Shown here one piece after another: positions 4,236 to 5,340 of a stretch of DNA of 21,429 bases. A program made the position numbers and the translations under genes. The stretch is taken from IMG/VR virus record IMGVR_UViG_2565956608_000001, positions 1 to 21,429 of that record. The stretch is one strand, 5' to 3'. Origin of the DNA: a virus. Its lineage: Duplodnaviria > Heunggongvirae > Uroviricota > Caudoviricetes. The notes under the pieces are model-generated. The model was not told where the DNA came from. It did not search any database and saw nothing but the letters and a program-made list of their open reading frames with translations. Each line of letters starts with the position of its first letter. Within the stretch, counting starts at the first letter, position 1.

Positions 4236-4237
4236 AT

Positions 4238-4516
4238 ATGACAGATACCAAAGTGAACTTCAAAGAAACCATCTTCAAGGACTCAAGTGATGCTGTAAAT
4301 GAGTATGCTGATGGATTTGCTTACTCGTCTTTTGGGGATGTCGGAGCAAGATTTGGTTCAATTGCATTTTTTAAGCATGTTTCAGACTGGGTTAATAATG
4401 AGGAGATTCAGCCAGTTAGATACCAAATTGCCAATATTCGCATGAGTGAAAATCAACTTCTTGAACTGGCTAAGTATATAGTTTCTCAACACGAAGAATC
4501 AAAAAAATTAAGCTGA
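4238..4516 (+). CDS. Hypothetical acidic 92-aa protein, first gene after mnt
   Basis: ORF starts 2 nt after the mnt stop on the same strand. Sequence is AT-rich compared with the structural genes. No recognisable domain; it does not look like a RelE/ParE toxin. Confidence 0.55.
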   Translation: MTDTKVNFKETIFKDSSDAVNEYADGFAYSSFGDVGARFGSIAFFKHVSDWVNNEEIQPVRYQIANIRMSENQLLELAKYIVSQHEESKKLS

Positions 4517-4706
4517 CAGAGCCATGATTACTTTTCCTGCCGTAAATGCTGATCATGCAGCGGAGAAAAAGAGAACACTTGGTCGTATGGGGTCGACAGG
4601 TGGCTTCGGAGAAAAGTCCAATGCTTCGCCTCCAGTTACCAAGAATGATATAACCAAAAACAATAATATCGCTTATCTTGGAAAACAATACACTGAGGAG
4701 CATGCT

Positions 4707-5084
4707 ATGGGCAGCCCATCAAGAGAAGAGATTGACGCGAAGCTTGGTCAAAACAAAGCAGAAATTGAGTTAATATCTGCTAACATGCGCGCTGAAATTT
4801 CAGCTTTCAGAGAATTCCAATCTAAGCAATTTACAGCTATGAATCAGTCGCTTAATGAAATTAAGGGACAGATATTCGCTAGCAATGGCGAAGTTGCAGG
4901 GCTCAAAGGCCAAATTGATGGCATTAAAACATCCATGACCGCGACCCAATGGCTCGTTGGTGCGGTTCTCGCTATGCTTGCGGTAATCATAACGCTTCCG
5001 CAGATTCAATCTTACTTCAAGGTTTCTGAGCCGACTGCGAAGGAAGCCGCTAGTGAAACCCATGATACCAAAATAAAGCAGTGA
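4707..5084 (+). CDS. Hypothetical tail-anchored coiled-coil membrane protein (125 aa from ATG 4707; alternative in-frame upstream start at 4524 would give 186 aa)
   Basis: A GAGGAG RBS lies 6 nt upstream of ATG 4707. The N-terminal region is heptad-like (EIDAKLGQNKAEIELISANMRAEISAFREF...) and there is one C-terminal hydrophobic helix (WLVGAVLAMLAVIITLP). Start choice is uncertain. Confidence 0.55.
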   Translation: MGSPSREEIDAKLGQNKAEIELISANMRAEISAFREFQSKQFTAMNQSLNEIKGQIFASNGEVAGLKGQIDGIKTSMTATQWLVGAVLAMLAVIITLPQIQSYFKVSEPTAKEAASETHDTKIKQ

Positions 5085-5112
5085 TCTTACCAATAAAACC
5101 TGGGAGGACAAC

Positions 5113-5340
5113 ATGAAGCAATGGCTCATCATAATTGCTGTTTTTTCGCTCATTTACACTGTTTTCCCAGCATTAAAAGCACCAATACAAATAATTTCAA
5201 TAGCAATAATTGCAATTGGTGCTTTCATTACAGTATCCGTACTTGTGTTTAAGGTTTTAAAGTTTTTAGTTTGGCTATCAAAAGATGATGGATGCAAAGT
5301 TCATCAAGAAAAAGAAGGCAAAATAACCAAAGTTGACTAA
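5113..5340 (+). CDS. Hypothetical small membrane protein (75 aa, two predicted TM helices)
   Basis: A strong GGGAGG RBS lies 5 nt upstream. The sequence MKQWLIIIAVFSLIYTVFPALKAPIQIISIAIIAIGAFITVSVLVFKVL... has two hydrophobic stretches and a charged C-terminal tail. Its 3' end overlaps the convergent gp16 stop by 4 nt. Confidence 0.55.
   Translation: MKQWLIIIAVFSLIYTVFPALKAPIQIISIAIIAIGAFITVSVLVFKVLKFLVWLSKDDGCKVHQEKEGKITKVD

Follow-up and report, generated by a model that had tools for sequence, protein, structure and literature searches.

The abortive-infection system of lambda, which acts through loss of membrane potential, consists of RexA, a protein of ∼280 aa, and RexB, a multi-pass membrane protein, encoded by two genes downstream of a maintenance repressor. 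In the description quoted in PMC8585504, rexAB is co-expressed with the repressor and supplies soluble and membrane components. Between cI and N lies a mosaic hotspot, home to rexAB or bstA and served by a highly transcribed lysogenic promoter, and BstA of prophage BTP1 is the product of a defense gene that typically lies behind the prophage repressor and shares its promoter (PMC8585504). The accessory "ant moron" region of P22-like phages holds sieA together with variable genes (PMC2629481; PMC10883804); SieA, of 162–200 aa, crosses the membrane with three or four helices and carries the motif FxRYPxEAxxFNK (PMC10883804). For sieB of P22, two products are annotated in the phage record, the full-length protein and Esc, which starts internally and is therefore shorter at the N-terminus. 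Esc reportedly restrains SieB, a finding said to go back to Ranade and Poteete in 1993. PMC7067206 cites an antisense-RNA switch between SieB and Esc. Passenger genes of repressor operons are not always defense genes.

The window considered here comprises 21,429 nucleotides of a caudovirus (IMG/VR record IMGVR_UViG_2565956608_000001, positions 1 to 21,429). From the sequence alone, a single three-gene cassette had been predicted behind its mnt gene, at the sieA position, with superinfection exclusion or abortive infection as a possible function. The interval, part of a P22-like E. coli prophage, instead contains two independent accessory units, and its three ORFs do not constitute one cassette.

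Results

Three conserved genes downstream of mnt

The presumed operon begins with an mnt-type maintenance repressor gene (3987-4235, + strand) for an 82-aa protein of the Arc/ribbon-helix-helix type (Pfam PF03869 [Arc], E 3e-10); its DNA is 95% identical to mnt of CUS-3. Three tightly spaced ORFs follow on the same strand, opposite to the late operon and at exactly the coordinates originally given: orf92 (4238-4516), orf186 (4524-5084), and orf75 (5113-5340). The gaps from mnt through orf92 and orf186 to orf75 are 2, 7, and 28 nt, respectively. The late operon ends on the − strand with the gene for a 707-aa ejection protein of the gene 16 type (5337-7460; mentioned for context), which is convergent with orf75 and overlaps it by 4 nt; in identical loci elsewhere, neighboring genes encode Inj_translocase and P22_gp7 domains. 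The predicted character of the products was also confirmed, in that hydropathy located one membrane segment in orf186 and two in orf75, and orf92 is soluble and acidic (pI 5.0).

All three proteins matched PHROG profiles over their full length, orf92 with phrog_4231 (E 4.4e-47), orf186 with phrog_5820 (E 8e-97, residues 1-186 of 186), and orf75 with phrog_7294 (E 9.9e-49, rounded 1e-48). Each of these PHROGs is labeled "unknown function", and no match to PADLOC models, SieA, or SieB emerged, which agrees with the earlier statement that the proteins, encoded in the accessory "ant moron" slot, belong to no recognized family. NCBIfam and PADLOC gave nothing meaningful for any of the three, and no search placed them in a family unrelated to defense.

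A profile search collected 177 representatives of the orf186 family at E ≤ 0.001, and synteny is kept across genera. The dN/dS ratio was 0.03 for orf92, 0.06–0.22 for the core of orf186, and 0.24–0.43 for its N-terminal extension. For orf75, it was 0.40 against the 48%-identical homolog of locus L037, the sole informative pair; closer pairs hold too few substitutions for this ratio, and one of them gave 1.36. Judged from these values, the genes are conserved under purifying selection. They are real genes, more than chance ORFs. The notion of chance ORFs or decaying remnants without function would fit the lack of a Shine–Dalgarno sequence at the long start of orf186 and the conflict between annotations of 125 and 186 aa, but is effectively refuted by the strong purifying selection, PHROG E-values down to 8e-97, the number of representatives, and the synteny.

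The prediction that the stretch is more AT-rich than its surroundings holds for the cassette as a whole, with a G+C content of 39.6% compared with 44.2% for gene 16, 43.2% for immI, and 50.4% for the remaining structural genes. This is mainly due to orf92 (36.6%) and orf75 (32.0%); orf186 has 43.9%.

The orf92/orf186 module is linked to maintenance repressors

Comparison of loci identifies orf92 and orf186 as a mobile two-gene module, a passenger of prophage maintenance-repressor operons. With few exceptions among the loci examined, relatives immediately follow a maintenance repressor gene, which encodes Mnt in P22-like and CI in lambdoid prophages. Homologs of orf186 and their partners are located between cI and N, exactly at the position of rexAB, in HK97, HK542, HK244, and HK225. 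The order in a Yersinia aleksiciae prophage is CI (Peptidase_S24), orf92 homolog (39% identity, E 5e-18), orf186 homolog (55%), and N. Together with many viral contigs, these loci bear out the comparison with rexAB that had been made originally. In 13 further loci from viral contigs and five from genomes, a small same-strand partner gene, itself preceded by an Mnt- or CI-type repressor, is almost always found directly upstream, and divergent versions of the pair lie behind other Mnt types in P22-like prophages of E. coli and Morganella. The pair occurs without an adjacent repressor in L035 and L055/L063. Because the module is missing from most P22-like and lambdoid phages, it is accessory. The species-representative genome scan yielded five loci, and the breadth claimed for the module is that of the Enterobacterales.

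As in RexA/RexB, one soluble and one membrane component are encoded by two genes downstream of a maintenance repressor. In contrast to Rex, the membrane component is here a predicted single-pass, tail-anchored protein with a long coiled coil, and the partner has ∼90 aa. None of the PADLOC defense models, which were the only means by which RexA and RexB were compared, matched the three proteins at E ≤ 0.1. BstA, a single large soluble DNA-associated protein, is unlike the pair and shares no similarity with it.

Between arc and mnt, a consensus scan found divergent, overlapping pairs of promoter-like hexamers (3912-3958, both strands), namely a candidate Pmnt (TTGATA..TATCCT, 3930-3958, + strand) and a candidate Pant (3940-3912, − strand), a layout that agrees with the annotated immI region of P22. 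Since the pair lies behind mnt here and behind cI in lambdoid phages, its position argues strongly that orf92 and orf186 are most likely made in the lysogen. P22 itself does not provide a precedent for cotranscription with mnt, because sieA has its own annotated promoter in the P22 record, beyond the annotated mnt terminator.

Architecture of orf186

In the HK97 gp48-like family, the core opens with the motif SREE(I/L)DAKL and continues through a coiled coil and the glycine pattern G-x3-G-x2-G-x3-G to a C-terminal membrane helix showing a Q/W/G/A/P pattern, and orf186 fits this description. Its core opens with SREEIDAKL (residues 66-74; 4719-4745, + strand), in which S-R-E-E is invariant in the alignments and which lies at the N-terminal end of a long helix; in the AlphaFold2 model, the monomer is one long helix (residues 67-157). 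The membrane segment detected by hydropathy spans residues ∼137-165, with a core at ∼143-165 (4950-5018, + strand) and conserved Q142, W143, G146, A150, A153, P159, Q162, and Y164, and is followed by a tail of 21 residues. The N-terminal region is not conserved across the family, and the pLDDT of residues 15-61 is below 50. On these grounds, orf186 is predicted to be a tail-anchored inner-membrane protein, in which a cytoplasmic disordered extension (residues 1-61), a long coiled coil, a glycine-striped juxtamembrane segment, the membrane helix, and a short periplasmic tail would follow each other. The protein is predicted to adopt this topology and would probably form a trimer.

A coiled-coil stalk and a C-terminal membrane helix are also characteristic of CCDC90/DUF1640 proteins (PF07798; MCUR1, CCDC90B, and prokaryotic relatives), and some copies of the orf186 type are named "CCDC90 family protein" in RefSeq. 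A charged motif at the opening of the stalk in the CCDC90 family and coiled-coil caps termed "beta-layer" have been described (PMC4786415); in our reading, the SREE motif of orf186 resembles such caps. Membership in this family was rejected, as the match reached 21.5 bits compared with the gathering cut-off of 33.5 bits and covered profile positions 96-170 of 175, which comprise the stalk and membrane helix only. PF07798 matched 30 of 82 relatives at E < 0.01, but the unrelated coiled-coil family Baculo_PEP_C matched about as many, so the similarity is partly coiled-coil noise. The folded N-terminal head of CCDC90 has no counterpart in orf186, the N-terminus of which is disordered in the AlphaFold2 model; no solved chains of CCDC90B or MCUR1 were retrieved.

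Two predicted starts of orf186

Start signals suggest that orf186 appears as two products of 186 and 125 aa, respectively. The long start, 7 nt past the stop of orf92, has effectively no Shine–Dalgarno pairing (−1.1 kcal/mol; −5.9 for orf92), whereas the sequence GAGGAG (4695-4700, + strand) pairs at −8.4 kcal/mol ahead of the in-frame ATG of Met62 (4707-4709, + strand). Thus, the strong ribosome-binding sites claimed for the last two ORFs are present at this internal start and at orf75 (−10.2 kcal/mol), but not at the long start of orf186. Initiation at Met62 would yield the predicted short product (4707-5084, + strand), which coincides with the conserved family core.

The internal start is conserved. 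Of 95 family representatives, 80 have a methionine 1–5 residues ahead of the core motif (background, 1.5% Met), and strong Shine–Dalgarno sequences, present at 5.7% of background positions, precede the internal start in 12 of 16 loci. The frame upstream of the core is open in each of 16 distinct homologs, the chance of 61 stop-free codons being 0.017. All 19 loci tabulated contain a small same-strand partner gene immediately upstream of the family member; in 15 of them, the long start and the stop of the partner abut or overlap, ranging from an overlap of 23 nt to a gap of 7 nt, and in the other four, all with class B partners (see below), the start is located 3, 5, 6, and 15 nt past the stop. 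The absence of a Shine–Dalgarno sequence from the long start, together with its proximity to the orf92 stop, suggests translational coupling, and the core-only form would be initiated at the conserved internal Shine–Dalgarno sequence and ATG. Annotations are split between 125 and 186 aa, the shorter form being given by some gene callers and database entries (P0006 and P0009).

In yielding a full-length and a shortened product, orf186 would be similar to sieB/esc of P22, but Esc lacks 24 residues compared with 61 for the short form of orf186. Homology of orf186 to SieB was considered and rejected (BLASTP E 6; hhalign E 0.28).

That one gene gives two products is a common regulatory device, and the tight linkage recurs with two unrelated types of repressor, Arc-fold Mnt and HTH/S24 CI. 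Both observations would also fit self-regulation of the prophage, in which the membrane protein and its partner, instead of acting on other phages, modulate the lysis–lysogeny switch, for example by sensing the state of the envelope or by membrane sequestration of a regulator or antirepressor. We regard this as very doubtful, because the same core beside unrelated repressors is more readily explained by borrowing of a promoter than by a specific partnership, and because the module is accessory and also found where no repressor is adjacent.

Small partners and the HK97 counterpart

The AlphaFold2 model of orf92 (pLDDT 75) consists of a three-strand sheet followed by a C-terminal helix, a predicted fold that found no match among solved and predicted structures. 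In the loci examined, homologs of orf92 are always directly upstream of an orf186 homolog. Elsewhere, this place is taken by other small partners, so that orf92 represents class A beside a family of ∼100-aa proteins (class B), the 144-aa partner of HK542 (class C), and partners with CxxC (class D). orf92 is remotely homologous to class B and, via class B, to HK97 gp49, a relationship defined by reciprocal profile scores, in which A and B, with gp49 through B, are detectable above shuffles, and not by direct profile–profile comparison, which gave P ∼0.005 and a low HH probability for A vs B and for B vs gp49. Direct similarity between gp49 and orf92 was not detectable, and no relationship of class C or D to the other classes was found.

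The clearest counterpart of orf186 is HK97 gp48, which aligns with its core at 36–38% identity (E 8e-21 to 8e-14) and is clearly homologous. The layout of gp48 is that of orf186, with a variable extension, a Shine–Dalgarno sequence and start ahead of MSREELDAKL, and a coiled coil leading to a C-terminal membrane helix, but part of the glycine-rich segment is missing. The small upstream partner gp49, the stop of which overlaps the gp48 start, appears to be a remote relative of orf92, and gp49/gp48 is probably related to the pair in the window. The HK97 genes differ in being located behind CI instead of Mnt and in belonging to a siphovirus instead of a P22-like podovirus, and HK542 has its unrelated 144-aa partner instead. 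No published study on the function of gp48 or gp49 was found, nor was one found via DUF1640/CCDC90 in prophages, accessions, or PHROG ids; the papers on Tai and Tab proved unrelated to the pair.

Motifs in the N-terminal extension track the class of the partner. The small partner and the extension hence co-vary in classes while the core of orf186 is constant, which points to a constant membrane part fitted with a variable one for recognition or control. Simple adjacency on the DNA, with recombination breaking at the core, could also account for this co-variation.

The position of the module fits equally well with lysogenic conversion unrelated to phage defense, as exemplified by the lambda genes bor and lom, and does not distinguish this role from the exclusion of other phages. 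In that case, the pair, and possibly orf75, would alter envelope physiology, stress tolerance, colonization, or virulence of the host, and the repressor promoter would serve for constitutive expression only. The lack of a match to any defense family is in line with this, and the weak CCDC90/DUF1640 similarity indicates no particular role. However, the experimentally characterized occupants found for such slots are mostly exclusion functions (rexAB, bstA, and sieA), as is nun, another occupant; a constant core combined with a variable partner and extension is more usual in systems engaged in an arms race; and in another prophage the slot of the module is taken by a PIN-domain pair. Taken together, we consider conversion unlikely.

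orf75, an independent unit at the sieA position

In 25 E. coli genomes, the start codon of orf75 is a homology breakpoint. Copies elsewhere lie behind a PIN-domain pair, behind an opposite-strand P63C gene, or in a prophage without immI, and stand-alone copies have their own Shine–Dalgarno sequence, a GTG start, and common conserved upstream sequence. In the window, orf75 is preceded by the Shine–Dalgarno sequence GGGAGGA (5102-5108, + strand). As orf75 is found without the pair and with its own expression signals, it is not part of the module, and comparison of these loci identifies it as an independent unit; the single three-gene cassette of the original prediction is not upheld. Conversely, the pair is present in lambdoid prophages without any orf75.

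One exclusion or abortive-infection system of SieA-like type, consisting of orf92, orf186, and orf75, is quite unlikely in light of this mutual independence, which extends to orf75 copies without even immI, and of the breakpoint exactly at the orf75 start. In its favor, the trio recurs in divergent form in L037, where it lies beside a different gene 16 type, and in L006-L009, and other small membrane proteins lie behind the pair in Morganella (76 aa) and L035 (116 aa). Furthermore, orf75 begins closely behind orf186, and a consensus scan revealed no promoter of its own in the window. No convincing intrinsic terminator was seen downstream of orf75.

The proposed sieA position is correct for orf75, which abuts gene 16 convergently as sieA does in P22 (the interval lies between genes 16 and 9), but not for orf92 and orf186, and none of the three is related to SieA. 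Both SieA and orf75 are small inner-membrane proteins of the gene 16–mnt accessory region, but orf75 has two helices, both within residues 1-57, and only 75 aa, and orf186 has one helix. Phage mutants that escape SieA are reported to have changes in genes 16 and 20. Against SieA types A-C, no BLASTP match of the three proteins was better than E 1.5, and the motif FxRYPxEAxxFNK was not visible by eye in the translated sequences. Homology to P22 SieA, P22 orf59a, and CUS-3 hkcB with its neighbors was sought and rejected, none being found. In size and predicted two-helix topology, orf75 resembles injection-blocking membrane proteins of small size, such as T4 Imm. The predicted two-helix inner-membrane mini-protein is most likely an independent membrane factor expressed in the lysogen and possibly a blocker of DNA entry.

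These findings refine the map of the P22-like "ant moron" to two slots. The one after mnt is occupied by the orf92/orf186 pair or, in another prophage, by a PIN-domain pair, and the one abutting gene 16 by sieA, orf75, hkcB-like genes, or others.

Discussion

The best explanation for the locus, which we hold with about even confidence, is that it contains two units, of which the orf92/orf186 pair is most likely made in the lysogen and most likely serves Rex-like exclusion of superinfecting phages. The membrane effector would be controlled by the soluble partner, and its activity set or restrained by how much long product is made relative to short. With two predicted products, one of them coupled to the partner, the module would offer a concrete mechanism of control.

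Only a few phage genes are expressed in all lysogens, among them those of repressor operons, and the well-studied examples are mostly exclusion functions. More tentatively, the pair and HK97 gp49/gp48 may represent a new and fairly widespread prophage immunity system of Enterobacterales, carried on repressor operons and composed of a variable small sensor or controller, with which a variable N-terminal extension co-varies, and a constant, tail-anchored, probably trimeric coiled-coil membrane effector that is present as a mix of long products, coupled in translation, and short products translated independently. The counterparts in the model phage HK97 give experimental access to such a system. 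If it exists, the mix of long and short products would be a built-in control, the logic of which is comparable to that of SieB/Esc or holin/antiholin.

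Genes between mnt and gene 16

The window holds the right end of the late operon and the immI region (arc/mnt/ant) of a P22-like E. coli prophage. The head, tail, and ejection genes are encoded on the minus strand, the last of this run being the gene 16 homologue (5337-7460; 707 aa), as are arc (3741-3881), ant (2582-3526), a 73-aa ORF that overlaps each of these two by 4 nt (3523-3744), and the tailspike gene, which is truncated at the window's left end. The 73-aa ORF corresponds to phrog_11805, of unknown function (E 6e-53); it has counterparts in some related prophages (L025 and that of strain AST215) and is missing in others. 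The plus strand carries mnt (3987-4235) and then orf92 (4238-4516), orf186 (4524-5084), and orf75 (5113-5340), separated from one another by 2, 7, and 28 nt in this order; the 3′ end of orf75 overlaps the end of gene 16. The original prediction of three ORFs behind mnt was correct. The arc-mnt interval contains promoter-like hexamers arranged as in P22 immI, with a candidate Pmnt among them. No convincing intrinsic terminator was found 3′ of orf75 (5340-5700, plus strand), so that transcription from Pmnt would reach the 3′ portion of gene 16 as antisense RNA. Inside mnt (4011-4028), the minus strand contains a hairpin that resembles a terminator and has a T-run, and late transcription toward the tailspike gene would pass through it; the ant moron of P22 has been reported to influence tailspike expression (PMC2629481).

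All three ORFs matched PHROGs of unknown function over their full length. Nine complete E. coli genomes contain the 1105-bp stretch in its entirety, with 98-99.7% identity, and it is also present on many E. coli and Salmonella contigs, with divergent versions in other E. coli prophages and in Morganella, Serratia, Klebsiella, Citrobacter, Enterobacter, and Yersinia. The dN/dS ratio was 0.03 for orf92, 0.06-0.22 for the core of orf186, and 0.24-0.43 for its N-terminal extension, which, judged by sequence comparison, is under purifying selection as well. For orf75, the comparison with a homologue of 48% identity gave 0.40; more similar pairs had too few substitutions to be informative. Hydrophobic segments and isoelectric points agree with the initial description. 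The AT-richness ascribed to the entire stretch holds for orf92 (36.6% G+C) and orf75 (32.0%), but not for orf186 (43.9%), which equals gene 16 (44.2%) in this respect.

orf75 is a separate mini-gene

The proposal that the three ORFs form a single cassette was not borne out. Another 25 complete E. coli genomes matched the 1105-bp query at positions 879-1105 only, the homology beginning exactly at the start codon of orf75. Conversely, lambdoid prophages carry orf92 and orf186 together, without orf75. In strain AST215, mnt is followed by a gene for a 239-aa protein, a PIN-domain gene, and then orf75; in another group of P22-like prophages (L029-L034), orf75 adjoins an opposite-strand gene for a P63C-domain protein (322 aa; 3451-4419), and mnt, arc, and ant are all missing from one member of this group (L033). 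The copies of orf75 behind the PIN and P63C genes have a GTG start behind AAGGAGG and share ∼40 nt of upstream sequence, including TGGTATCCT, which suggests that orf75 is expressed on its own there. As orf75 is convergent with, and abuts, gene 16, it occupies the place of sieA in P22; thus, the assignment to the sieA slot holds for orf75 by position, and no sequence relationship to SieA was found. The small membrane protein at that spot is one of 76 aa in Morganella, a multi-helix one of 116 aa in L035, and hkcB in CUS-3. The trio does recur in divergent form (L037 and L006), so that orf75 and the pair may be functionally linked; given the independent occurrence of both units, one system made of all three genes is improbable.

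Several of these loci show further peculiarities. In the AST215 prophage (2614-3872 of L014), the 239-aa protein, which has no Pfam match, and the PIN-domain protein take the slot of orf92 and orf186; the two may be a toxin or defence pair. The orf75 homologue of phage E212 (about 4000-4227 of L015), noted together with phage EC.P3, is unannotated, its match being listed only under the adjacent "transglycosylase" (gene 16) feature. In the Morganella morganii locus (L011), mnt and the orf92 homologue are separated by an additional gene for a 92-aa protein (5702-5980) that is unrelated to orf92. The 76-aa protein, encoded after the coiled-coil protein, combines a single membrane helix at its N terminus with a coiled-coil segment and resembles CUS-3 hkcB in architecture. 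CUS-3 itself (4088-4617 of L005) carries two tandem mnt-like genes, the first with DNA 95% identical to mnt of the window and the second of the P22 type, followed by three other accessory genes.

The orf92-orf186 pair follows repressor genes

Relatives of orf186 were found by translated search of phage genomes in HK97 (gp48), HK542, HK244, and HK225. In the two records inspected, those of HK97 and HK542, the gene is flanked by cI and N and sits where lambda has rexAB, which bears out the analogy to rexAB drawn earlier. In Yersinia aleksiciae, the order is CI (Peptidase_S24), a 98-aa protein homologous to orf92 (39% identity, E 5e-18), the orf186 relative, and N. A small same-strand gene precedes the orf186 relative in all 13 distinct viral-contig loci and all five loci from species-representative genomes that were examined further, and before it lies a repressor gene of the Mnt or CI type, recognized by similarity or by Pfam HTH_3, Phage_CI_repr, or Peptidase_S24. 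Loci L035/L036 and a Pantoea locus are exceptions without an adjacent repressor; the 244-aa gene at the repressor position in Phytobacter (L060) falls outside this confirmation. As maintenance repressors of two unrelated kinds precede the module, the gene order is most simply read as the borrowing of a promoter active in lysogens, where the pair is presumably expressed. The cI-N interval is a mosaic hotspot with rexAB and bstA, and has one of the most active prophage promoters (PMC8585504); the region between genes 16 and 9 of P22-like phages is a variable "ant moron" (PMC2629481), and only a third of the sequenced phages carry sieA there (PMC10883804). A role of the module in regulating the prophage itself is slightly less probable than a three-gene system.

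The small partner proteins fall into four classes: the orf92 family (A), a ∼100-aa family (B), the 144-aa family of HK542 (C), and proteins of 118-127 aa with paired CxxC motifs (D). Pairwise similarity between A and B is marginal (best BLAST E 9e-5; hhalign P about 0.005), and their relatedness rests on reciprocal profile searches against 500 shuffles, with C and D as controls. With the A-family HMM, five of five B members outscored at least 499 of the 500 shuffles, as did four A members with the B-family HMM, to which HK97 gp49 scored above all 500; C and D stayed within the null distribution. On the basis of these results, HK97 gp49/gp48 is treated as the counterpart of orf92/orf186, gp48 being a clear and gp49 a remote homologue. 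The AlphaFold2 model of orf92 (pLDDT 75) comprises a three-strand sheet and a C-terminal helix, and had no significant match in PDB or BFVD.

orf186 is predicted to yield two products

In the orf186 family, the N-terminal 25-130 residues are unconserved. The core opens at SREE(I/L)DAKL and leads into a coiled coil and glycines spaced 4-3-4. At its end lies a membrane helix, in which Q, W, G, A, A, P, Q, and Y are conserved, and beyond it a short tail, frequently Pro/Gln/Thr-rich. In the AlphaFold2 model of orf186, residues 15-61 are disordered, and 67-157 form one helix running into the membrane segment. Since there is no signal peptide and ∼140 residues precede the sole hydrophobic segment, the protein is most naturally inferred to be tail-anchored, with its N terminus inside. 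The coiled coil probably oligomerises, the cap-like SREE motif being the one feature suggestive of a trimer (compare PMC4786415). The RefSeq label "CCDC90 family protein" was rejected: it stems from a sub-threshold match (21.5 bits versus a cut-off of 33.5) to stalk and membrane helix only, seen in about one-third of the relatives, no more than match an unrelated coiled-coil family; no solved CCDC90B or MCUR1 chain was recovered, and the orf186 model lacks the folded CCDC90 head domain.

The strong ribosome binding sites originally described were found, except that the long start of orf186 has no Shine-Dalgarno (SD) sequence (−1.1 kcal/mol), whereas that of the in-frame Met62 (4707), predicted to give a 125-aa core-only product, is strong (−8.4 kcal/mol). 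This internal start is conserved. Met stands 1-5 residues before the core motif (mostly 4) in 80 of 95 family representatives, compared with a background of 1.5% Met in the extensions, and several of the exceptions carry Val instead. In 12 of 16 distinct homologues, the internal ATG/GTG is immediately preceded by an SD sequence with a duplex energy of −6 kcal/mol or below, versus 5.7% of in-frame background positions. In each of the 16, the upstream frame is free of stops over 53-89 codons (an open frame over 61 codons at this composition having a chance of 0.017), and the SD-less long start is close to the partner's stop codon, between 7 nt downstream and 23 nt of overlap in 15 of 19 tabulated loci; the distance downstream of that stop is 3, 5, 6, and 15 nt in the remaining four, which all belong to class B. 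Together, these features predict two products that would presumably mix: a long one, made by translation coupled to that of the partner, and a short one, limited to the core and independently translated.

The extensions carry motifs that match the class of the partner: FPAVNAD or HPAAYAD with A, VDAxxMPAYHEK with B, and LRV(V/I)GGSGFEA with C. This fits an interaction between partner and extension, but recombination with a breakpoint at the edge of the core would explain it equally well. orf186 (4524-5084) is also mosaic within the gene: compared with L006 (6001-6579), the C-terminal 48 residues, which form the membrane helix and tail, are identical and the extensions 33% identical, whereas compared with L035 (4001-4549), the extension is 85% and the core 64% identical. 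Thus, recombination appears to shuffle extension, core, and anchor.

Possible function of the pair

Neither the pair nor orf75 has a sequence relationship to SieA, orf59a, or hkcB, none to SieB was found, and no PADLOC model matched. The pair resembles rexAB in combining a soluble and a membrane component in a repressor operon, and P22 sieB/esc, so annotated in the P22 record, in its two in-frame products; both likenesses are best read as ones of logic, not of family membership. The original interpretation, possible superinfection exclusion or abortive infection, is supported in part, and a role of the pair in defence has nearly even chances. Speculatively, the partner and the extension would sense or restrain, and the orf186 core would act on the membrane to exclude superinfecting phage or abort their infection. 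Some other form of lysogenic conversion is unlikely, if the least so of the alternatives. The pair is a well-conserved, uncharacterised passenger of repressor operons with counterparts in HK97, and since the tests are simple and this model phage is at hand, experimental follow-up is worthwhile.
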